DNA of 64,000 nucleotides from an uncultured Planctomycetota bacterium (GCA_963823665.1 CAWGMQ010000006.1:1696001-1760000), one strand, 5' to 3'; shown: positions 1,880 to 14,179, counted from the first letter of the stretch. Made by a program: numbers and translations. Notes: generated by a model from the letters alone, not told the origin.

Positions 1880-2332
1880 ATGATTCGTCGAGAACTGTTC
1901 GGAGCCTTGAGCGTTACAGCCGCCGGGTTGATGGGAGCGATCGGCCGGGTCGCCCAGGCCGGTGACCAGGACCACCACCAGGACGAAGTTCACGAAGGAT
2001 GCCTCAAGAACTGCCAGGCCTGCAAGCGGGAGTGCGACGAGGCGTTCCACTTCTGCGCTTTCGAATTGGCGGAAGGCAAGAAGGAGTATGCCAGGGCCCT
2101 CCACCTGGTCGCCGATTGCGCCGCGTTCTGCGACCTTTCCGCGACGCTCATCGCCCGCCAGAGCCCGCTCATGGTTCACGCTTGCGCGGCCTGCGCAAAG
2201 GCTTGTCAGGACTGTGGGGCCGAATGCGACAAATTCACGGACGCGGCGCTGAAGGAATGCGCCAAAGCCTGCCACGACTGCGAGGCGTCTTGCCGATCAA
2301 TGATCAAGTCGTCGGGCGACCATCATTCTTGA
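1880..2332 (+). CDS. Four-helix-bundle copper-binding/storage protein (Csp/DUF326-like) with Tat signal
   Basis: MIRRELFG twin-arginine leader, His-rich linker, 16 Cys in CxxC/CxxxC spacing, AGGAGG RBS. Confidence 0.85.
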   Translation: MIRRELFGALSVTAAGLMGAIGRVAQAGDQDHHQDEVHEGCLKNCQACKRECDEAFHFCAFELAEGKKEYARALHLVADCAAFCDLSATLIARQSPLMVHACAACAKACQDCGAECDKFTDAALKECAKACHDCEASCRSMIKSSGDHHS

Positions 2333-2355
2333 GACTCAGCGCGGAGGTGGAGACC

Positions 2356-3668
2356 TCAAACCGACGCTTCAATCGCCGGCCGCACTTTGCACCACGCGGC
2401 CTCGATATCGTCCCGATCCAGTTGGCCCAAGATCCTCGTCGCGGCCGCCTCCCTAACCGCGTCCGCCTGAGCCGTGAGCGCCTGCGCGCGGCATCCGTGG
2501 GCATCCGCGGTGTGATTCGCCGGATGGCATCAAGGATCCGGATCAGCACAGCCGGGTTATCCGCGGCGGCTTGGCGTATCTGATCGAACGCCGTCTTGAC
2601 CACTCGCTCGAGCCGAAGCGGAGGCACTCGCACCCGCAGCTTGCCGCGGCCGTCGTACCAGCATCCGTCGCTCAGGGACACATCCGCAACGCAGAGCAGC
2701 GCGTCCGCCACCCAATCGACGCACCCCACACCCGTGAACGTATCGTTGACCGCCGGCGAAAGCGCGCGGATCGCGATCTCGACGATCTGCGCAATGCCGA
2801 ATTCGCAGTCCTGCGCGAGAACGCGGTGTCTTCCGATGCGCACATGTCGCCCGACCAAGCCGTCGAGGTCGGCAAGTCGGTGGGGCGGCCAGACACACGC
2901 GAGTGGCTCGCCACTCAGCACAAACTGCCCCGGTCTATACAGGACGTGAATGACGGTCTCCGTCCGAAGGGCCGCGGCCACCAGGGCCGCGCGGTCGATC
3001 TCCTGAACGTAACCGCTGTGCTTGCACGTGACGGTCTGCCCTTGGCCGATCTGCTGCGCGACGACCTCCGAACGAACGCGCTCGCCGCTTCCCTGGTGAG
3101 GCCCGCGCGCGTGCGCCTGGATCACGGTGGGCCGCATGTCGTCGACGATGCGCGCGATCATGTCCGGATTCTGGAGGGAAGCGGCGATGCGATGGCTGTA
3201 ATAGATCAGGAACCCAAAACTTGCGATCACCAGGAACCAGCTCGTGATGAGAGAAACCTCGGGAATAAAGGTCGAGTGCGAGTCCTGATGGGTCACCAGA
3301 AACACCAGACACAGATAGATGAAAGTGGCCATGAACAGGCCGATGGTGGCCTGCGTGACCCAATCCTGGAGGAATCGATAGAGGAGGCGCGGACCGAATA
3401 GCGTGGCGACCATCGAAAGCACGAGGAGCGCGACGGAGAAGATCAGCGCCAGGACCGTGCTCACGCAACTGAGCATTGCGCTCAGGATGGCGCGCGCGTC
3501 GTCAATGCCACCCATGGTGAACCATTCGGGAAGATGAATGGCACCACGAGCATCCAGGACATCCGGAATCATGGTGAGCCCGAACAAGACGAGGCTCGCC
3601 AGCGAGAATTTCAAAGGGATCCGCCAGAGATTCACGTCTGAGGAGCGACCGACGGGAGCAGAGCGCAC
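2356..3668 (-). CDS. DUF2254 family membrane protein (frameshift near 2485)
   Basis: ARAILS...FGPRLL..F...SGYVQEID...IAIRALSPAVNDTFT motifs. GTG at 3668 has AAGGAG 8 nt upstream. A 1-base shift near 2485 restores a ...LDRDDIEAAW... C-terminus ending at 2356. Confidence 0.8.
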
Positions 3669-3682
3669 CAGGGCGTCTCCTT

Positions 3683-3868
3683 CTATTTGTGGCCGCCGCT
3701 GCGGTGCCGGCACGTGATGAAGCCGTGGTTGTTCCGCCCGCCAGTCTTTTTCAGCGGGGCAGTCAGTCTCTTCTCGGGCTTCTTGTTCTTGTCGGTCAAC
3801 TCGGAAAAATCGCTCACGGACGCGAACCGTCGCCCGGCGCTCGTCGGTTTGTAAAATCGGATGCCCAT
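3683..3868 (-). CDS. rplB: Stand-alone 61-aa N-terminal fragment of 50S ribosomal protein uL2 (mini-ORF or pseudogene)
   Basis: [25 protein letters not shown]...PEK...[20 protein letters not shown] matches the uL2 N-terminus and ends in TAG right after GGHK. No other S10-operon genes nearby. Confidence 0.8.
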
Positions 3869-3982: not shown

Positions 3983-4066
3983 CTACCAGCCGCCACCGCT
4001 GGTGAGGAACAGTCGGAGAAAGAGGTCGTGCTCAGAATGAGAGTTGTTGATTTTGAATCTGAGCAT
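3983..4066 (-). CDS. 27-aa micro-peptide A, MLRFKINNSHSEHDLFLRLFLTSGGGW (putative leader peptide)
   Basis: GAGG RBS 5 nt before ATG, own promoter, paralog of equal length at 4295-4378. Confidence 0.7.
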   Translation of the reverse strand: MLRFKINNSHSEHDLFLRLFLTSGGGW

Positions 4067-4110
4067 GGATACCTCGACGGATGAGGTTCTGACCCTCGAC
4101 CATCCCACGA

Positions 4111-4140
4111 ATTCTATGAATCGCCCTGGCAAGCCGTCAA
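4111..4140 (-). promoter_or_regulatory. sigma70-type promoter TTGACG-N18-TAGAAT for micro-peptide A unit
   Basis: Near-consensus -35/-10, preceded by GGCGATTTTCG identical to the plus-strand copy. Confidence 0.7.
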
Positions 4141-4222
4141 CGAAAATCGCCCTTCGAAGAAATGGCCAGCAGCCTCGAGCCGCGGCTGCCGCCAAATGCG
4201 CGCCGGCCGCCGGCGATTTTCG

Positions 4223-4252
4223 TTGACATCGCGCGAAGCCGATCGATAAGAT
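4223..4252 (+). promoter_or_regulatory. sigma70-type promoter TTGACA-N18-TAAGAT for micro-peptide B unit
   Basis: Perfect -35 and near-consensus -10, mirror image of the minus-strand promoter. Confidence 0.7.
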
Positions 4253-4294
4253 TCTGCGGAGTCAGTGTTAATCAGACTCGCATCTGAGGATTCG

Positions 4295-4378
4295 ATGCTC
4301 CGACAAACATTCAGCCACATCCGCTCTGAGCACGACCTCTTCATCCGCCTCTTCCTCACCGGCGGCGGCGGCTGGTAA
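4295..4378 (+). CDS. 27-aa micro-peptide B, MLRQTFSHIRSEHDLFIRLFLTGGGGW (putative leader peptide)
   Basis: GAGG RBS 5 nt before ATG, ends TGG TAA, paralog of 3983-4066. Not in the supplied ORF track. Confidence 0.7.
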   Translation: MLRQTFSHIRSEHDLFIRLFLTGGGGW

Positions 4379-4653
4379 GTATCGGGCTCCGCGCCCTTTC
4401 GCGTCTTCGCCCCACTCCCTTGCCGGCGCGCGCGACTCGATGCGCCGCAAACACCCGGTCTGCGCGCGCACCGTCGTGACCAATCGCCTCATCAGGCACT
4501 TCGCAAGCATGCAAAACGCGTCGGGGCGATCGTGCGAGTTGCAGCGATTTTCGGGCAAATCGCACGGGTTTGTCCCCGGTGAGCCCGCCTTGACTTTCGA
4601 GTAAATCCGTAAAGTATCCCCGCGCAATCACATCCGAGTTATCACAATACGTT

Positions 4654-4669
4654 TGGCACAACGAATGCA
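4654..4669 (+). promoter_or_regulatory. sigma54 (-24/-12) promoter TGGCACAACGAATGCA
   Basis: GG-N10-GC spacing with TGGCAC, about 45 nt upstream of the ATG at 4715. Confidence 0.6.
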
Positions 4670-4714: not shown

Positions 4715-5179
4715 ATGCTCAGACGATTTTCTCTTGTTGTTGTGACCGCCGCATGCTTGCCCGCCGCAAGCGGGTGCGGCAATTCCGCCGGCCTTGTTCC
4801 GGTCTCGGGAAAGGTGTCGTACAAGGGCGATCCGGCCGCGGGTGCGGTCGTTTACTTCCAGCGCGCCGATAGCCATCCCTCCTCGCACGAGCTTGTGCCG
4901 TTCGGGGTCGTGCAGAAAGACGGGGGCTTTTCGCTCTCTTCTGAGGGGCTCGGATCGGGCGCGCCGCCCGGAAGCTACAACGTCTTGATCGAGTGGAGAG
5001 ATGGAACAGAAAACGGTGTGGTCCCCGTCAAGGGCAAACCAAACCTCGTAAAACGCACTCGCATCCACGCCGGCCCGGACAGGCTGGGTGGGCGATATTT
5101 CAACGTCAGCAAGCCGCTGCTCACGGCCGAGGTCAAACCCGGGTCGAACCCACTTCTGGCGTTCGAGCTCAAGGACTGA
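4715..5179 (+). CDS. Lipoprotein with carboxypeptidase-regulatory-like domain (DUF1559-associated)
   Basis: Lipobox ASGC, VSGKVSYKGDPAAGAVVYF, GAPPGSYNV. Confidence 0.75.
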   Translation: MLRRFSLVVVTAACLPAASGCGNSAGLVPVSGKVSYKGDPAAGAVVYFQRADSHPSSHELVPFGVVQKDGGFSLSSEGLGSGAPPGSYNVLIEWRDGTENGVVPVKGKPNLVKRTRIHAGPDRLGGRYFNVSKPLLTAEVKPGSNPLLAFELKD

Positions 5180-5268
5180 CCGGAGCAACAACTGAATACT
5201 GTGGCGCCGTGTGGGCGCCAAAGCTCAAGCGAAGCGAAGAATTGCATCTTTGAATTGGAGAAACGCCA

Positions 5269-6417
5269 ATGAATGGACTGCGTCGTTCGATTAAACCCCG
5301 TGGGTTCACTTTGATCGAGCTCCTGGTCGTGATCTCGATCATCGCCGTGCTGATCGCTCTCTTGCTGCCGGCTGTACAAGCGGCGCGTGAGTCTGCGCGG
5401 CGATCGCAGTGCATCAACAACTTGAAGCAGATCGGGTTGGCCACGCTCAACTTCGAAACCACTTACGGCGCGTTGCCTTCGGACAGCCCCAGACTTGCGG
5501 TCCCTGACCCGAACGCCGATGCCCAGGCCGCGATTCCCACAATCACATGCTCGTACCTGACCCAGATTCTGCCTTTCATGGATCAGTCGGTGATCTACAA
5601 TCAGATCAACCTGCTTCAGGCCGCCTCCGATACCGCCAACATCCCGCCGTGCACGGGCCCCGGGGCTCTGCACTCGGGCAATAACTCGGCGTACTCGCAG
5701 GCGATCAGCGTGTTCCTGTGTCCGTCGTCGCCAGGGCCGGCGACGATCAATTACTACAACGCGTTCTGGGGCCCGTATGGCGACGGCGGCGGCGACACCT
5801 GCACGCCTGGATCGCCGGCTCCAATCGGCGGAGTGACAAACCTCAATCCGCCCCCCACGCAGATCTGGGGGAGAACTGACTACTTCCCGATCCCGGGGCT
5901 CCACAACACGGCCCTTCTGGCCGCGGGAATGAGTGCCACTTACATCGCCGCGGTGGGCGAAGGCAAAGACTCGGGCACGCTGACCAATCCCCTGATCACC
6001 GGCAAGATCCGCATGGCTTCGATCACCGACGGCAGCTCGAACACCATGATGGTTTCCGAATGCGGCTCGAAGCCGATCGGTTACAACGGATTCCGCCAGA
6101 TTTATCTGTCGGAAGTCAACGGCCTGCCCGTCGACGGCGTGATCGAGCCCGTCTCGAGCGCTGGCGGCGCCTGGGCCGACAATTTCACCTACTCGAGCCT
6201 GGCCGGTGCGCAGGGGCGCTTGACCGGAGTTCGAGGCGGCACGTGCATGGTGAACTGCACCAGCAACAACGAGATCTACGCGTTCCATCCCGGCGGTGCG
6301 AACGGCTTGTTTGTCGATGGGTCTGTCCATTTTCTCAAGGACACCTCGTCGGTTCCCTTCATCGCCGCGCTCGTGACCCGCGCCGGCGGCGAGATGATCA
6401 GCAGCGACCAGTATTGA
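5269..6417 (+). CDS. DUF1559 prepilin-type N-terminal cleavage/methylation protein
   Basis: [56 protein letters not shown] (H-X9-DG). Confidence 0.95.
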
Positions 6418-6522
6418 TCTGATCCGGTCGCAGCGAATCCGTGACGCTTGAGCGCCTTTGCGGCGAGCGCCGACGCGAGTCGGCCCGCCGCAAGGGCGTG
6501 CTTCCCCTATCGCTAACGACAG

Positions 6523-8592
6523 ATGAGACAAAACTCCAGCACCTCCGCGCTCTTCATCGTGTTCTGCACGATCGTCGTCGGCCCCGGTTGCAGCCGGCAA
6601 GACATCGAGCCCTCGCCGCCGGTTCAGCCGGTGAGCGCCGAACGAGTTGAGCTCGATTTTCTGCTCGCAAACGAATCCGTTCGCGCCAAGACCCACAAGA
6701 CGCAATCACGCCCCGCGCCCGATTTCGCCCGGGACGTTGCGCCGCTTTTGGAGAAATACTGCGTGAGCTGCCACGATGCGGCCGGAGCTGAGGGTGGCGT
6801 CATCCTCGAAAACATCTCAACCCGACCGCACGAAAAGCTCACGCCGCTCTTGAAACGCGTGGTAGAGAATCTGCGATCCGAAAGCATGCCGCCCGAGGGA
6901 GAGCCGCGTCCCGACGCGATGGAGCTCGAGATCATCTGCTCCTGGATCGACGGCGCGACCACGAAGCTCGATCACGGTCCCGGCCATCACGCGCCGCGGC
7001 GTCTCAATCGGGCTCAATACAACAACACGATCCGCGACCTGATCGGCCTCGACCTGCGACCGGCCGACGAGTTTCCCTCGGACGACGTCGGATACGGATT
7101 TGACAACATCGGCGACGTGCTATCGACCTCCCCGATCCTGATCGAGATGTATCTCGCCGCCGCCGAAAAGGTGATCGATGTGGCGTTTCAGTCGCCCGAG
7201 CCGCGAGCGAGGATCCTGAATCCCTCCGCCGATTTCATGCCGCTCGCCTTCCGGCGATACACCCCGCCCGTGCGAGCGCCGCGCGATTACAAGGTGCTCC
7301 GGACCGCTCCGGTAACTGCCGATCCCGAGATCCAGCGCCAGCAGCACATCTACAACATCCTGCGGGCGTTCGCCGATCGAGCTTATCGGCGGCCGGCCAC
7401 GCACGACGAGCTCACCCGTCTGCTCGGCATCGTGATCTCGGCCGAAAAGGACGGCGAGACGCAGGATCGCGCCCTCCGGCTCGCACTCGAGGCGGTGCTG
7501 TCCTCACCTCATTTTCTCTTCATCGGCGCGGGTGTGGCGCAGGATGCCGCCCCCGCTGAGCGCGCTTCGCCGCAACACGACTTTGATCTCGCCGTTCGTC
7601 TTTCCTATTTCCTGTGGAGCAGCATGCCCGACGACGAGCTTCTTCGCCTGGCGAGCCAGGGAGCCCTGCGCCGCCCAGGTGCGCTGGAAGCTCAGGTGAA
7701 GCGGATGCTCGGCGATCGCCGGTCTCGAGCCTTGGCCGAGCAGTTTGCCGGCCAGTGGCTGCAAATTCGAAAGCTCGCGACGTTCGAGCCGGACCGAAAG
7801 CTCTTCCCCGAGTTCGACTCGTCACTGAAGGACGCAATGCTCGAGGAAGCGACGCTCTTCTTCGAGTCGATCGTACAAGAAGATAGGACCGTGCTCGATT
7901 TTCTGGAGGCGGATTACACCTTCGTGAGCGGCCGTCTGGCTCGGCACTACGGGATCGCCGGCGTCGAGGGCGAGGCATTTCGCCGCGTCTCGCTCAAAGG
8001 TACGGCTCGCGGCGGCGTGATCACGATGGCGAGCGTACTTGCGGCGACCTCGAGCGCCACGCGGACCTCACCGGTCAAACGCGGCCGTTGGATTCTCGAC
8101 AACATTCTGGGAGCACCTCCCTCGCCGCCGCCGGCCGGCGTGGAAGCGCTCAAGGAAACCCGTGGCCCCGCGGGGACGCTCCGACAGCAACTGGAGCAGC
8201 ACCGGAGCAATCCCGACTGCGCCTCCTGTCATCGGCGGATGGATCCCCTGGGGTTCGCGCTCGAGAACTTTGATTCGCTCGGAAGTTGGCGGGAAAAAGA
8301 GTCGGGCCAGAGCATCGATGCGGAGGGCCGTTTGCCCGGGGGCCGGGCGTTCCGCGGGCCGTCGGGTCTCCGAACGGCCCTGTCGCTTCGCCGTGATGCA
8401 TTCGCCCGCTGCCTGGCCGAGAAGATGCTCACATTCGCGCTGGGCCGCGGAGTCGAGGCGGCGGAAAGCCCCGCGGTGGAGCAGATCGTGCATCGCCTGA
8501 AGCGCAATAACTATCGGTTTTCCGCGCTGGTCCTGGGCATCGTCGAAAGCGAGCCATTCTCGAACGGGTCAAGCCAGGCCGAGGGGCCATGA
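6523..8592 (+). CDS. DUF1592-family protein (planctomycete cytochrome c plus DUF1587/1595/1592/1588/1585 domains)
   Basis: CVSCH and CASCH heme motifs, RRLNRAQYNNTIRDL, LSYFLWSSMPD, TSPVKRGRWIL, DPLGFALENFD. Confidence 0.92.
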   Translation: MRQNSSTSALFIVFCTIVVGPGCSRQDIEPSPPVQPVSAERVELDFLLANESVRAKTHKTQSRPAPDFARDVAPLLEKYCVSCHDAAGAEGGVILENISTRPHEKLTPLLKRVVENLRSESMPPEGEPRPDAMELEIICSWIDGATTKLDHGPGHHAPRRLNRAQYNNTIRDLIGLDLRPADEFPSDDVGYGFDNIGDVLSTSPILIEMYLAAAEKVIDVAFQSPEPRARILNPSADFMPLAFRRYTPPVRAPRDYKVLRTAPVTADPEIQRQQHIYNILRAFADRAYRRPATHDELTRLLGIVISAEKDGETQDRALRLALEAVLSSPHFLFIGAGVAQDAAPAERASPQHDFDLAVRLSYFLWSSMPDDELLRLASQGALRRPGALEAQVKRMLGDRRSRALAEQFAGQWLQIRKLATFEPDRKLFPEFDSSLKDAMLEEATLFFESIVQEDRTVLDFLEADYTFVSGRLARHYGIAGVEGEAFRRVSLKGTARGGVITMASVLAATSSATRTSPVKRGRWILDNILGAPPSPPPAGVEALKETRGPAGTLRQQLEQHRSNPDCASCHRRMDPLGFALENFDSLGSWREKESGQSIDAEGRLPGGRAFRGPSGLRTALSLRRDAFARCLAEKMLTFALGRGVEAAESPAVEQIVHRLKRNNYRFSALVLGIVESEPFSNGSSQAEGP

Positions 8593-8593
8593 T

Positions 8594-9940
8594 ATGAATA
8601 AACACCGTAGAATCTCACGACGAACCATCCTGCGGGGCATCGGCGCGTCGCTGGCCTTGCCGCTCCTCGAAGTGATGGAAGACCGTAGCGCCCGCGCGAG
8701 CTCCGCTCACGGCGGCAAGCCGCCCGTGCGGATGGCATTCCTGTACGTTCCCAATGGAGTGCACATGCCGGCGTGGACGCCGCGCGCGGAAGGCAAGGAC
8801 TTCGATCTGCCGCCGATCCTGGAACCGCTCTCCGCCGTCAAGAATGAAATCCTTGTCCTGAGTGGGCTCACCTTGAATCCGGCTCGCGCGCTCGGTGACG
8901 GCGGCGGCGACCACGCTCGGGCCATGGCCAGCTTCTTGACGGGCTGTCACCCACGGAAGACCGGCGGCGCCGATCTGTGCGCGGGGGTCTCGGTCGATCA
9001 GGTCGCTGCGCAGCGACTGGGCCACCTGACCCGGTTTCCGTCGCTCGAGATCGGCTGTGAGGGAGGGCAGAACGGCGGCGAGTGCGACCACGGCTATAGC
9101 TGTGCGTACCAGTCGAACCTGGCGTGGCGCAGCGAACGGGCGCCGCTTGCAAAGCAGGTCAATCCCCGGTTGTTGTTCGACCGGCTCTTTGGTGCTCCGG
9201 CCGAAAACGAGAGCGCGCAAGCCCGTGCCCGGACCGCTCGGCGGCAGAAGAGCGTTCTCGACTTCGTCCTGGAAGAGACCCGGCGCCTCACGCAGGATCT
9301 CGGCGTTGCAGACCGCCGCAAGCTGGATGAGTACCTGACCAGCGTTCGCGAGGTCGAGCGGCGGATCTCGATTGCCTCGCCCGTGTTCGACCATGGTGGA
9401 TCGGCTCATCAGCGGCCGCTCGGAATTCCTGCCGACATCGAAGAACACTTACGCGTGATGAGTGATCTCCTGGTACTGGCGTTTCAGGCCGATCTCACGC
9501 GAATCGCGACGTTCGTCTTCGCCAACGACGGCAGCAACCGGAGCTACCCCGCGATCGACGTTCGCGACGGCCATCACGACCTGTCGCACCACGGCGGCGA
9601 CGCCGCCAAGGAAACGAAAATCCTTGCGATCAACCGGTTCCATGTCGCCCAGCTCGCGTATCTCTTCGGCAAGCTGAAGTCGACTCGGGAGGGAGATGGT
9701 TCACTGCTCGATCACTCGATGATCGTCTACGGCAGCGGCATCAGTGACGGCAACTCGCACCGCCACGACAACTTGCCGATTCTGCTCTCGGGCCGTGCCG
9801 CAGGCACGATCAAGACGGGCCGGCACATTCGCTGCGCGGCGGAGACGCCACTCTGCAATCTCTATGTATCGATGCTCAATCGCATCGGAGTCGATGCAAC
9901 GGCGTTCGGCGACAGCACCGGCGATCTGGGTGCTCTGTAG
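8594..9940 (+). CDS. DUF1552 family protein (Tat signal)
   Basis: ISRRTILRGIGASLALPLLE, YVPNG, GYSCAY, HHDLSHH, GSGISDGNSH. Usual partner of DUF1592. Confidence 0.92.
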   Translation: MNKHRRISRRTILRGIGASLALPLLEVMEDRSARASSAHGGKPPVRMAFLYVPNGVHMPAWTPRAEGKDFDLPPILEPLSAVKNEILVLSGLTLNPARALGDGGGDHARAMASFLTGCHPRKTGGADLCAGVSVDQVAAQRLGHLTRFPSLEIGCEGGQNGGECDHGYSCAYQSNLAWRSERAPLAKQVNPRLLFDRLFGAPAENESAQARARTARRQKSVLDFVLEETRRLTQDLGVADRRKLDEYLTSVREVERRISIASPVFDHGGSAHQRPLGIPADIEEHLRVMSDLLVLAFQADLTRIATFVFANDGSNRSYPAIDVRDGHHDLSHHGGDAAKETKILAINRFHVAQLAYLFGKLKSTREGDGSLLDHSMIVYGSGISDGNSHRHDNLPILLSGRAAGTIKTGRHIRCAAETPLCNLYVSMLNRIGVDATAFGDSTGDLGAL

Positions 9941-10170: not shown

Positions 10171-11302
10171 TCACACATCCGCGATCAGAATATCCAGCCC
10201 TTCAGCCTGGCGCTCGAGCCGGTTCAAGATCGAGCCATTCAACTGCTTGTACCACGGCTGACGGCTCTTGCCGACCACGATGATCTTGATCGCGTATTCG
10301 TGGGCAAACGCCAGCATGGTGCTCGCGACGTCCGGCCCGCGGAACGTCATGGGGATTCCGCCGAGCTGCTGCGCCAGCTCGAGATTCTTGCGAGAGCAGC
10401 CGCTGCGTGGCCGCGTCGATGCGCGTCAGGTCTTCAAGCGGCGTCTGAATGTACACGGCATACCACGGCACATTCAGCCGGTCGGCGATCCGCGCAGTCT
10501 TTCGCAAGAGCGCGGGCGCATTCGGGCTGCGGCTCGAAATGCCAACCATGACGCGGTCCGTCGCCGAGAGCGGAAACTGGTCGGCCTCGGCCCGCCGCGT
10601 CCGGCGGTCGATCAAGTGGGCAATCTCCGTCAGCGTGATCTCGCGTAGCCGCGTCAGATTCGAAGGCGTGAAGAAATTCTCGAGCGCCGCATTGATCCGG
10701 TCGGGTGGATAAACCTTGCCGGTGTTGAGCCGTTCGATCAAGTCTTCGACGGAGATGTCCACGTTGACGATCTGGTCGGCCTCGGCAAGCACGCGGTCCG
10801 GAATGCGCTCCTTCACCCGCACGTTGGTCACGCGCTCGATCTCGTCGTACAGACTTTCGAGATGCTGAACGTTCACAGTTGTGATCACATGAATGCCCGC
10901 ATGAAGCAGGTCTTCGACGTCCTGAAATCGCTTGGGATGGCGCGAGCCGGGTGCGTTGGTGTGGGCCAGCTCGTCGACCAGGCACACCGTCGGCCGCCGG
11001 ACGATGATCGCGTCGACATCCATTTCGCGGAGGGTCACGCCGCGATACTCGACCACGCGTGGAGGAATGATCTCGAGGTCACCGATCTGTTCCGCCGTCT
11101 CGCGGCGCCCGTGCGTCTCGACCAGGCCGATCACCGCGTCGACGCCCTGCGACTTGAGACGATGGCCTTCCCGGAGCATCGCATAGGTCTTGCCCGTGCC
11201 GGCCGCCGAGCCCAGGTAAACCTTGAGCCGTCCCCGCGTCTGCCGGCGGATCAAGCTCAGGAACTGCTCGGGAGTCGGTCGATGAGTCTCCGTGGAGGGC
11301 AT
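10171..11302 (-). CDS. kdpD: Truncated KdpD: N-terminal sensor + Usp domain, no kinase (frameshift near 10390)
   Basis: GRLKVYLGSAAGTGKTYAML, VDELAHTNAPGSRHPKR, TTVNVQHLESL. The shifted frame ends ...GLDILIADV at 10171. Confidence 0.88.
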
Positions 11303-11359
11303 GGAATTGGACCTCGGCTCCTTCGTCAATCATGAAAGAATATGGATCGGAAAACGCCC

Positions 11360-11911
11360 CTACTTGTCCAGCTCCAGGTTGAGCAGCAGCACGTTCACTC
11401 GAGCGGGGGCGCCGATGATCGTGCCCGATCGGTTCGTCATCTTCTCGATCAGCGTTCGCACAACCTCGATCGAGAGCCCGCGCGCCTTCGCAACGCGAGG
11501 CGCCTGGAAAAAAGCCGTCTCCAGACTGATGTCCGGATCGAGACCCGAGCCCGACGCCGTGACCAGGTCCAAGGGCGCCGGCTGACTGACGGTTGCCTCG
11601 AGAGCCTGAACCCTGGCCACGACCGCCGTGCGCAGATCCGCGTTGTTGGTGCCAAGGTTCGACCCTCCGGCCGCGTCTGCCTTGTAGTCGACCGCAGACG
11701 GCCGCGGCCGGAAGTACCGCGCCGAGACGAACCGCTGCGCGATCAGCTCTGACCCGATCACCGTTCGCCCGTCCGGCGCGTAAATCAGGCTTCCATCCGC
11801 CTGCGAGGGAAACAATAGCTGCGCCACCCCCCAGACCGCCGCCGGGTAGACGATCGCACAGAGAAGAAAGGTAAGGATGCAGGCTTTGAGTGCTTTCATG
11901 TAAATTGTCAT
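11360..11911 (-). CDS. kdpC: K+-transporting ATPase subunit C
   Basis: GSELIAQ, PRPSA, GGSNL, VTASGSGLDPDIS, VNVLLLNLELD. Confidence 0.95.
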   Translation of the reverse strand: MTIYMKALKACILTFLLCAIVYPAAVWGVAQLLFPSQADGSLIYAPDGRTVIGSELIAQRFVSARYFRPRPSAVDYKADAAGGSNLGTNNADLRTAVVARVQALEATVSQPAPLDLVTASGSGLDPDISLETAFFQAPRVAKARGLSIEVVRTLIEKMTNRSGTIIGAPARVNVLLLNLELDK

Positions 11912-11935
11912 CTGTTAGTTGTCAGGTGTTAGTTG

Positions 11936-14070
11936 TCATTTGATGACCATTGTCAGGATCGGGTCGATCATCAGGTCGATCAGCTTGATTCCGATGAAGG
12001 GCGCGATGACTCCGCCCAGGCCGTAGAAGAGCATGTTCCGGCGCAAGAGGCGCTGGCGCCGACCGGGCGGTACGTCACTCCCTTGAGCGCGATCGGGATG
12101 AGTAGCGGGATGATGATCGCGTTGAATATCACGGCAGAGAGGATCGCCGACTGCGGGCCGCCCTCGGTCGCGAGGCCCATCAAGTCGATTGCCCGCAGGA
12201 ACGCGAGCGATTCGAAGCCGACGAACATCGCCGGAATCACGGCGAAGTACTTGGCGAGGTCGTTGGCGATGGAAAAGGTCGTGAGCGCTCCGCGGGTCAT
12301 GAGCAGTTGCTTGCCGATCTCGACGACTTCGATGAGCTTGGTCGGGTCGCTGTCCAGGTCGACCATGTTGCCGGCTTCCTTGGCAGCCTGAGTGCCCGAG
12401 TTCATGGCCACGCCGATATCGGCCTGAGCCAGCGCAGGGGCGTCGTTGGTGCCGTCGCCCATCATGGCGACGAGCTTGCCGCCGGTCTGCTCCTTGCGGA
12501 TATAGGCAAGCTTCGCCTCGGGCGTGGCCTGGGCGATGAAGTCGTCGACGCCCGCCTCGTCGGCGATCGCCTTGGCGGTCAGCGGGTTATCGCCCGTCAC
12601 CATCACCACGCGCAGCCCCATCTGCCTGAGCCGGGCGAACCGTTCGCGAATGCCCTGCTTCAAGATGTCTTCCAGCTTGATCAGCCCGACGATCTTCTCG
12701 TCGCTCACCACGGCGAGCGGCGTTGCGCCCTTCGAGGCGATGGCGTCGACCGTCTCCTGGTAGCCGTCGGGAATGGTTCCGCGCATCTCCTCCACGGCCC
12801 GCGCGATCGTGTTCGGCGCCCCCTTGCGGATCCGGCATCCGCCGGGAATATCGATGCCGCTCATCCGGGTCTGGGCCGTGAACTCGACGAACCGGCTGCC
12901 GTCGGGAGCTTCCAGCTCCAGGGTGAACTCACGTCGCGCCAGCTCGACAATGCTCTTGCCTTCCGGCGTGGTGTCGGCCAGCGAGGCCATCGCGGCCAGC
13001 CGCGCCAGCTCCCGCTCGTTCGTGCCCTGTAGCGGCACGAACGCAGTCGCGCGGCGATTGCCAAGCGTGATCGTGCCGGTCTTGTCGAGCAGCAGCGTGT
13101 CCACATCGCCGGCAACCTCGACGGCCTTGCCGCTCTTGGCGATCAGGTTTGCCGCCAGCGCTCGATCCATCCCCGCGATCCCGATCGCCGCGAGCAAAGC
13201 ACCAATGGTCGTGGGGATCAAACACACCAGAAGTGCGATGAGCGTGGGGATGTCCAGGCTGATCGCAAAGTACCGGGCCATGGGATACAGCGTGGCGGTG
13301 ACGATCAGGAAGATGATCGAGAATGCAGCAAGGATGATCGTCAGCGCGATTTCATTCGGCGTCTTCTGCCGCGACGCCCCTTCAACCAGGGCGATCATCC
13401 GGTCCAGGAAGCTTTCGCCGGCCCCGGCGGTCACCTCCACAACAATGCGATCGGAGAGCACCCGCGTTCCGCCCGTCACGCCCGACCGGTCGCCGCCGGC
13501 CTCGCGAATCACCGGCGCGCTCTCGCCGGTAATCGCCGACTCATCGACCGAGGCCACGCCGATGACGATGTCGCCGTCAGCCGGAATGATCTGACCGGCC
13601 TCGACCACGACGCGGTCGCCCGGCTTCAGCTCCGTCGACGAAACCTCGATCGTCTCGCCCGAGCTATCCAGCCGAAACGCCAGCGTGTCCTGACGAGTCG
13701 CCCGCAGGCTCTGTGCCTGCGCTTTACCCCGAGCCTCGGCGAGTGCCTCCGCGAAATTGGCGAAGAGCACCGTGAGCAGCAGCAAGAACGCCAGCGCCGC
13801 CTGATAAAGGATCAGCCCCGTGCCGGCCCCCGACACGATCGACTCGATTGTCACAAGCGTGGTCAAGATCCACCCGGCCTCGACCAGGAACATCACCGGG
13901 TTTCTTGCCATGTTCCGAGGGTCGAGCATCACGAACGATCGGATCGTCGCCATCTTCACCAGTGCCGGCTCGAACAGCCGCAGCCGGCGGGTATGACGGC
14001 GATTCAGCTTGAGTGCCTGAGAATCGATCGGAGGCGGCGCGGGAAGCTGAGTCGGAGTGAGAAGCGACAT
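11936..14070 (-). CDS. kdpB: K+-transporting P-type ATPase subunit B (frameshift near 12050)
   Basis: [25 protein letters not shown]. The shifted frame gives [17 protein letters not shown] ending at 11936. Confidence 0.95.
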
Positions 14071-14130
14071 TGGCAGTGAGTTTCCTGGCGGACAAGATCG
14101 AGATCGAATTCCGATGATAACGTCGATCGC

Positions 14131-14179
14131 GCCGCAGTGCGGCACACGGAGCATTCCGACGCAGAGCGTCGGAACGAGG
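14131..14179 (-). repeat. 49-nt two-hairpin REP-like element (copy 1)
   Basis: Reverse complement CCTCGTTCCGACGCTCTGCGTCGGAATG...GCCGCACTGCGGC, same family as 25475-25523. Confidence 0.7.

Follow-up and report, generated by a model that had tools for sequence, protein, structure and literature searches.

Twin micro-ORFs of a planctomycete genome belong to a conserved 26-27-codon family with the genomic context of a leader peptide

The 64,000-nt stretch of DNA analysed here (the window; GCA_963823665.1 CAWGMQ010000006.1:1696001-1760000) comes from an uncultured Planctomycetota bacterium and carries two very short open reading frames (micro-ORFs) that point away from each other, each behind a promoter and a 5' leader of its own. 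A preliminary description of the locus had taken the pair for leader peptides of an unrecognised family. Its coordinates and translations were reproduced exactly, and the module can be laid out as follows, with E-values from a hidden Markov model (HMM) of the family.

3983-4066, minus strand: micro-ORF of 27 codons and TAG, translation MLRFKINNSHSEHDLFLRLFLTSGGGW, family HMM E 3.2e-17
4067-4110, minus strand: 5' leader of the minus micro-ORF, with a short hairpin (4097-4094 / 4086-4083) and the Shine-Dalgarno (SD) sequence GAGG (4075-4072)
4111-4151, minus strand: promoter of the minus micro-ORF, with the GGCGATTTTCG extension, -35 box TTGACG (4140-4135), 18-nt spacer and -10 box TAGAAT (4116-4111)
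4212-4252, plus strand: promoter of the plus micro-ORF, with the GGCGATTTTCG extension, -35 box TTGACA (4223-4228), 18-nt spacer and -10 box TAAGAT (4247-4252)
4253-4294, plus strand: 5' leader of the plus micro-ORF, with a weakly supported short hairpin (4259-4263 / 4275-4279) and the SD sequence GAGG (4286-4289)
4295-4378, plus strand: micro-ORF of 27 codons and TAA, translation MLRQTFSHIRSEHDLFIRLFLTGGGGW, family HMM E 9.7e-16
4379-4460, plus strand: C-rich, G-poor tract after the plus stop codon (80 nt: 45% C, 28% G), which ranks within the highest 4.2% of background windows

The two copies resemble each other in the ways first described. A GAGG stands 5 nt 5' of each ATG, and the C-terminal 17 residues are identical at 15 positions, the two differences being L/I and S/G; of the six nucleotide changes within these 17 codons, four are synonymous. 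Inverted repeats extend over the ORFs (arms 3984-4075 / 4286-4377, 92 nt, 76% complementary) and over the promoters (arms 4109-4151 / 4212-4254, 43 nt, 74% complementary, containing the 16-mer GGCGATTTTCGTTGAC). The sigma70-like promoters TTGACG-18-TAGAAT and TTGACA-18-TAAGAT are the sole such matches between 3500 and 4900 (two, against 0.3 expected from shuffles), and the pattern CGATTTTCRTTGAC-N16-19-TANNAT occurs at only these two sites in the whole 16.46-Mb genome, with none for the reversed-pattern control. What does not stand is a recent local inverted duplication. Over a 169-column module the pair is 65% identical, below the 83% (plus copy) and 79% (minus copy) found against a copy in another genus, and the two are best regarded as old paralogues because each is closer to its counterpart in other genera than to its partner. 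A six-frame search of the genome itself returned only these two copies; a third match (E 3.9) lay inside a 313-aa frame and was set aside as noise.

Sequence comparison places both ORFs in an undescribed, strongly conserved micro-ORF family of the class Planctomycetia, 26-27 codons long, with the core motif [ST]-E-[HN]-x-L-[YF]-L-x-L-F-[ILV]-[TS]-x-x-G-G-W-stop. Homologues in Planctomycetota genomes, which the preliminary description had wanted looked for, are numerous. A six-frame search found relatives in 17 of 61 related genomes (E<=1), and a profile search matched 48 of 401 genomes of the class (E<=0.01), which fall under 13 family handles, f1 and 12 others. When 401 genomes were sampled across the whole phylum, most of them not of this class, matches came only from the window's own genome and one other genome of the same class. 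The regions fetched amount to 60 loci with 59 unique tails. The window's copies fall in a clade of 22 loci, all in f1 genomes, with peptides that end T[GS]GGGW. Two or three copies are present in 11 of the 48 profile-matching genomes, and the fetched copies of such genomes precede different genes, for example at the three loci of G030.

The family has also been detected at the DNA level, with a degenerate pattern for LF-I-T-N-G-G-G-W-stop run over one genome per species (185,579 species). Of 34 loci, 33 are in records titled Planctomycetota. The carriers include Singulisphaera (among them S. acidiphila DSM 18658), Paludisphaera, Tundrisphaera and Planctomicrobium, together with metagenome-assembled genomes (MAGs) of Pirellulales, Planctomycetaceae, Gemmataceae, Isosphaeraceae and Lacipirellulaceae. 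The sole locus from elsewhere (L136), followed by a Na_Ca_ex gene, comes from a MAG labelled Deltaproteobacteria, in which its contig of 2.8 kb is either mis-binned or the product of transfer.

That the family is unrecognised, as first supposed, is borne out by the databases. Neither peptide of the window matched Pfam or NCBIfam (E<=10), nor did one relative match NCBIfam; Rfam gave nothing at E<=1 in the window between 3000 and 6000, and at gathering score it gave only a tRNA among 15 other loci. No description of the peptide was found in the full-text literature, where 'TNGGGW' occurs nowhere in text, subscription journals and supplements lying outside the search.

Selection acts on the protein. 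Among 58 unique 16-codon cores used for substitution analysis, the third codon position is the most variable. In the window's clade (20 members in this set) the proportions of synonymous and nonsynonymous differences, pS and pN, are 0.353 and 0.025, a ratio of 0.07; over all pairs of the 58 cores the ratio is 0.43. The invariant Leu of column 8 is written with five codons, including TTG, and codon families are switched for Arg (CGN and AGG) as well as for Ser (TCN and AGY). L19, F20, G25 and G26 do not vary, 52 of the 58 cores have W27, and amino-acid conservation is strongest next to the stop codon. The alternative named at the outset, conservation at the nucleotide level only, is not what these comparisons gave: it is the amino-acid level that is conserved. 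Length is nearly as constant. An open frame is kept at each of the 77 loci examined, and an ATG lies exactly 27 codons 5' of the stop in 51 of them and 26 codons in 14 (65/77 together). All three stop codons are used (TGA 25, TAG 21, TAA 13). From these patterns we infer that the ORFs are translated.

Several variants of the peptide were seen. Divergent members at L107 and L108 (also L102, L104 and L105) end in GGV or GGL instead of GGW, and two of the members with such ends precede ammonium-transporter genes; they may be a subtype with a different signal. One copy (L035), which adjoins a Crp-like regulator and ends ...LCIRLFLTGGGGR-stop, is degenerate (F to C, W to R) and may be decaying; its counterpart in another genome (L033) is intact. 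A second divergent pair occurs in a genome of another family handle (L088:6001-6060 on the minus strand and 6300-6359 on the plus strand, about 250 bp apart). Its copies have only the coding core in common, neither has an ATG at 26-27 codons, and one stands 5' of a Na_H_antiport_3 gene.

The genes that follow the micro-ORF were called with a crude script of our own (longest ORF with a GC3 filter; starts are approximate), and the first one or two ORFs on the same strand were scanned with Pfam. The main set consists of the 38 loci outside the window's clade, and 18 further loci from the DNA-pattern scan served as a hold-out. Of the 38, 31 have their first called downstream ORF (100 aa or longer) on the strand of the micro-ORF, with a median gap of 133 nt. 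Ion-transport or compatible-solute genes follow in 26 of the 38 loci: Na_H_Exchanger (8), NhaA (4), Na_H_antiport_3 (2), Na_Ca_ex (3), P-type cation ATPase (2), a short MgtE with CBS (3), a GT4 protein like sucrose-phosphate synthase (2, S6PP being next in one), Glyco_transf_20 of the trehalose-phosphate synthase family (1), and GT2 with HAD (1). The same gene classes recur in 12 of the 18 hold-out loci (GT4 sucrose-synthase-like 6, Na_H_antiport_3 2, Na_H_Exchanger 2, Na_Ca_ex 1, GT2 with HAD 1). At the other six, the contig ends (2), no same-strand ORF was called (2), there is no Pfam hit (1), or a beta-lactamase-fold gene lies 847 nt away (1).

A similar set of genes is reported for the Na+ riboswitch regulon (PMC9337991), and sucrose and trehalose are the osmoadaptation solutes named for the planctomycete Rhodopirellula baltica (PMC3694870). 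Across most members, the signal is probably Na+/salt or ionic stress, because in most lineages the downstream genes serve the export of Na+ or other cations or the synthesis of compatible solutes. Taken over the whole family, the arrangement of genes looks like that of a cis-acting leader, and at this level it speaks strongly for an unrecognised leader-peptide family.

The 80 nt past the stop codon have a composition of their own. C exceeds G there in 58 of 59 loci, with a mean skew of 0.17. The 80 nt preceding 246 other genes of these loci average 0.014; the genomes are related, so any p-value for the difference is overstated. Measured against background windows, 29 of the 59 tracts rank in the top 10%. 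Pairing of the ORF tail with the following 80 nt is no better than in composition-matched shuffles (mean z -0.06). Since the G-rich end of the ORF pairs with the tract no better than shuffled sequence does, what marks the region after the stop is its base composition, of the kind seen at a Rho-loading site, and not a specific hairpin; composition alone is no proof of a Rho utilisation (rut) site. A Rho homologue is encoded in the genome, and no intrinsic terminator was found after either ORF of the window.

Upstream, the module of the window's clade is well kept. The sequence CGATTTTC[GA]TTGAC...TAnnAT is found in most of 22 aligned members, CGAGG or TGAGG is conserved 5-6 nt 5' of the ATG, and in the alignment promoter, SD and ORF are all conserved up to the stop codon, where conservation ceases. 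RNAalifold predicted no consensus structure for the leader, and single-sequence z-scores of its hairpin are weak (mean -0.88; 3 of 22 below -1.64). At L142, L084 and L130 a -10-like box was seen by eye about 7 nt 5' of the ATG, which suggests leaderless mRNAs at these few loci.

These observations are most readily explained, though with real reservation, by a cis-acting regulatory leader (nascent) peptide of an Na+/salt or ion-stress regulon that works with Rho much as TnaC and SpeFL do. Each ORF, with its own sigma70-type promoter, would open a transcription unit. A peptide of 26-27 residues fits wholly inside the ribosomal exit tunnel at termination, so with the ribosome at the stop codon the whole conserved peptide (...SEHxL[YF]LxLFxTxGGGW) would still be within the tunnel. 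Under the inducing condition the peptide would delay termination, and the stalled ribosome would cover the start of the C-rich, G-poor tract, which would otherwise load Rho. With Rho kept off, transcription would run on into the downstream genes. The signal would be Na+/salt or ionic stress in most lineages. In the window's clade the module would have been recruited to a DUF2254 gene (minus copy) and to read-through towards a sigma54-driven DUF1559 operon (plus copy), and what it senses and controls there is less certain. In this scheme we infer the regulation in cis, the stalling, the part played by Rho and the nature of the signal, least firmly for the window's own clade.

Several known systems invite comparison. 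TnaC of the tryptophanase operon in Enterobacteria has 24 codons, acts at its stop codon and is followed directly by a Rho-loading region. The planctomycete family is likewise a short upstream ORF of conserved amino-acid sequence, with 26-27 codons and a proposed action at the stop codon, and like TnaC it lies on the same strand directly upstream of genes in most non-clade loci; both copies of the window also point at downstream genes. It has no sequence similarity to TnaC (the Pfam and NCBIfam scans of the peptides were empty), its stop codons are of all three kinds, and downstream there are genes for cation export and osmolytes instead of tryptophan catabolism; stalling is proposed for it by analogy. 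MgtL and MgtP of Salmonella precede cation-transport genes (mgtA, mgtCBR) as short leader ORFs, and their translation varies with ionic or osmotic conditions; they act via translation speed at proline codons and alternative RNA hairpins. In the planctomycete family, by contrast, the whole peptide is conserved and no alternative hairpins were found. Leaders of the trpL, hisL and pheL type differ in that here there is no terminator, the spacers are not conserved, and transporters or osmolyte synthases rather than biosynthetic genes lie downstream.

In SpeFL, leader peptide and ribosome together capture a small ligand, and stalling with transcription antitermination controls a downstream stress-related gene. 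This arrest peptide senses ornithine and lies upstream of speF (bioRxiv 10.1101/604074). In sequence, taxon and regulon the planctomycete family is unlike it. PepNL of E. coli, a very short peptide, is described as hindering the release factor and so halting the ribosome that has reached the peptide's own stop codon (PMC11890864); the arrest is specific to UGA and relieved by Trp-tRNA read-through. The planctomycete peptides use all three stops, themselves end in Trp and have no sequence relation to PepNL. The genes controlled by the Na+ riboswitch (DUF1646 motif) are given as Na+/H+ antiporters, P-type ATPases, other cation transporters and osmoprotectant synthesis (PMC9337991), and a similar set of cation transporters is given for the Li+ riboswitches (nhaA-I; PMC9646797). 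The controlled genes are nearly the same as here, as is the position in the 5' leader. Those elements are structured RNAs, whereas the planctomycete element shows coding-type substitutions and no Rfam match; the resemblance is one of function, not of family.

A number of observations weigh against a leader peptide of an ion-stress regulon. The loci come from related genomes and are not independent samples, and the ORF calls are those of the crude script. Twelve of the 38 main-set loci have other downstream genes or none (an ammonium transporter, Amt, in 2, an RND pump in 1, other enzymes or proteins in 4, and no same-strand ORF scanned or no Pfam hit in 5). In the window's clade, no recognised Na+ transporter follows any of the 22 loci. 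The next gene after the plus copy is 337 nt away, beyond a conserved sigma54-like promoter, and the tract after the minus copy is barely C-rich (skew 0.07). An SD sequence was found in 26 of 65 loci (background 0.096), nearly all of them in the window's clade, and is mostly missing elsewhere. In the sucrose-synthase and CPA groups, neither sequence nor structure is conserved in the spacers between micro-ORF and gene, and a stand-alone small gene would look alike in this respect.

Such a gene is the main rival, though on balance a rather unlikely one. It would encode a stand-alone 27-aa protein, a short amphipathic helix with a Gly-Gly-Gly-Trp tail, induced together with stress genes and active in trans on, for example, transporters, membranes or the ribosome. 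The micro-ORF would then have its own conserved promoter and conservation ending exactly at the stop, as is seen, together with strong selection on the amino-acid sequence; the want of a conserved attenuator structure in the spacers and the separate promoter of the plus-side operon also fit. Less easily accommodated are the 2-3 copies of several genomes, which where fetched directly precede different, non-homologous genes, for membrane transporters as well as for cytosolic sugar-phosphate synthases, and the strong orientation bias (31/38 on the same strand). There is no terminator past the ORFs of the window, and no hydrophobic stretch is long enough for a membrane helix; the longest apolar run of the window's peptides, LFIRLFLT, is broken by Arg.

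Quite improbable is a conserved element that is mainly RNA, riboswitch-like or protein-binding, with an incidental or secondary frame whose G-rich end GGNGGNGGNUGG might mimic an SD sequence. Codon choice in the core is indeed very uniform (CTC TTC ... GGC GGC GGC TGG), and the regulon is like those of the Na+ and Li+ riboswitches. Against this, substitutions are mostly synonymous and the Leu, Arg and Ser codon families switch, the ATG is held at 26-27 codons with the frame open in every locus, neither the window nor the 15 other loci matched Rfam at the thresholds given above, and neither a consensus fold of the leader nor a specific pairing of the ORF tail with downstream sequence was found.

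Classical attenuation, with charged tRNA(Gly) or tRNA(Trp) sensed through the Gly-Gly-Gly(-Gly)-Trp codons, is suggested by the three to four Gly codons and the Trp codon at the end of the ORF and is scarcely credible: the remaining 13 or more residues are equally conserved as amino acids, Ser or Ala replaces a Gly of the run in some members, no alternative terminator/antiterminator hairpins with a U-tract are present, and the ion transporters and osmolyte synthases downstream have no part in Gly or Trp metabolism.

Three other readings were rejected. A precursor of a ribosomally synthesised and post-translationally modified peptide would call for maturation enzymes (radical SAM, cyclodehydratase, protease/transporter), and none were found among 111 scanned downstream ORFs (92 main and 19 hold-out) or in the window. 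A membrane micro-protein of the KdpF, AcrZ or MgtS type does not fit a peptide with no hydrophobic helix of about 18 residues that also precedes cytosolic enzymes. Chance ORFs are ruled out by the relatives and the fixed length.

The cis-acting leader peptide can be carried a step further, to a version held only tentatively. The ribosome with its 27-residue nascent chain might itself be the direct sensor of intracellular Na+ or ionic strength, a peptide counterpart of the Na+ riboswitch that switches on sodium export and compatible-solute synthesis across Planctomycetia by stalled termination. Different signals would then have their own paralogous variants, namely TNGGGW, T[GS]GGGW and, ahead of ammonium transporters, ...GGV/GGL. 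To our knowledge, an inorganic ion or ionic strength as the ligand of a nascent-peptide sensor is without precedent. Known sensors that put bacterial gene expression under the control of sodium are few; before the Na+ riboswitch, according to the paper that describes it, only one protein sensor of this kind had been demonstrated (PMC9337991). If the proposal is true, the translating ribosome would be a third kind of sodium-sensing device and the first nascent-peptide sensor of an inorganic ion.

The family has implications apart from the nature of the signal. A fixed length and a near-invariant C-terminus delimit it sharply, and the Na+/cation exporters and osmolyte-synthesis genes that it precedes come from at least nine non-homologous families. 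It can serve as an annotation marker for salt-stress operons in planctomycete genomes, and it is a widespread gene that automatic gene callers have overlooked. As far as we know, gene regulation in this phylum is almost unexplored. Since members occur in cultured, non-pathogenic strains such as Singulisphaera acidiphila DSM 18658, whose micro-ORF is followed by a Na_H_Exchanger gene, the proposal is directly testable.

The genes and other features on either side of the micro-ORFs in the window are these.

2304-3668, minus strand: DUF2254 membrane protein gene (PF10011, E 5.6e-93)
3683-3868, minus strand: relic of ribosomal protein L2, a 61-codon N-terminus ending GGHK-stop (Ribosomal_L2_N match below cut-off)
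4531-4566, no strand: palindrome CGTGCGAGTTGC-N12-GCAAATCGCACG between the micro-ORF and the DUF1559 operon, an inverted repeat conserved in 10 orthologous loci
4654-4669, plus strand: sigma54-type promoter-like element TGGCAC-N5-ATGCA, the only match in the 64-kb window (0.21 expected)
4715-5179, plus strand: 154-aa lipoprotein-like ORF, first of the plus-side unit (4715-9940)
5269-6417, plus strand: DUF1559/N_methyl protein
6523-8592, plus strand: PSD/PSCyt protein
8594-9940, plus strand: DUF1552 protein

On the plus side, the sigma54-like element lies 276 nt past the stop of the micro-ORF and is conserved in the 10 orthologous loci, and an rpoN homologue is encoded in the genome. The palindrome is possibly the site of an enhancer-binding protein. 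Together the two elements suggest enhancer-dependent control of this planctomycete-specific lipoprotein/DUF1559/PSD/DUF1552 operon. Because the operon has a sigma54-like promoter of its own, its control by the plus micro-ORF is less certain. The proposal that a leader family governs two divergent units is thus upheld in part: the family is unrecognised and its overall context leader-like, while in the window itself the two copies may control their neighbouring units, a claim weakened on the plus side by that promoter.

On the minus side, the L2 relic begins 115 nt downstream of the micro-ORF, ahead of the DUF2254 gene. The likely start of the latter is GTG at 3668, with the SD sequence AAGGAGA (3682-3676) directly after the stop of the relic, and the arrangement is orthologous in L069 and L028. 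No paper on the function of DUF2254 was found, as judged by titles and the beginnings of abstracts. A full-length L2 paralogue after a micro-ORF and a response-regulator gene was observed at L072 (by Pfam) and L030 (N-terminal sequence only), and a single full L2_N match occurs on contig C3, elsewhere in the genome of the window.

Across the 22 loci of the clade, the micro-ORF adjoins the DUF1559 operon at 10 loci, the plus copy among them, and DUF2254 at 3, the minus copy among these, with a DUF2254 fragment at 1 more. An unnamed membrane protein of about 110 aa is the neighbour at 5 loci (with a response regulator and an L2 paralogue next in two), a Crp-like regulator at 2, and at 1 locus nothing was called. 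By its gene neighbourhoods, the clade has moved away from the Na+ context to other downstream genes.

The membrane protein of about 110 aa has the motif GRLxWMxxGP and no Pfam family (L030:8202-8534, L070:5552-5884, L082:5607-5936; aligned starts also in L072, L075 and L076). It recurs as the first gene past the micro-ORF, stands once ahead of a Na+/Ca2+ exchanger, and has a conserved GC-rich hairpin just before its SD sequence. Among sequencing runs, small shares of window DNA were seen in five soil-metagenome DNA runs, and no RNA run was listed for it. About 6 kb from the micro-ORFs, at 10202-14154 on the minus strand, a cluster resembling the kdp potassium pump was recognised by eye; it includes an ORF like the N-terminal part of KdpD, a KdpC-like ORF (11360-11911) and a KdpB-like P-type ATPase (11980-14154, minus strand).

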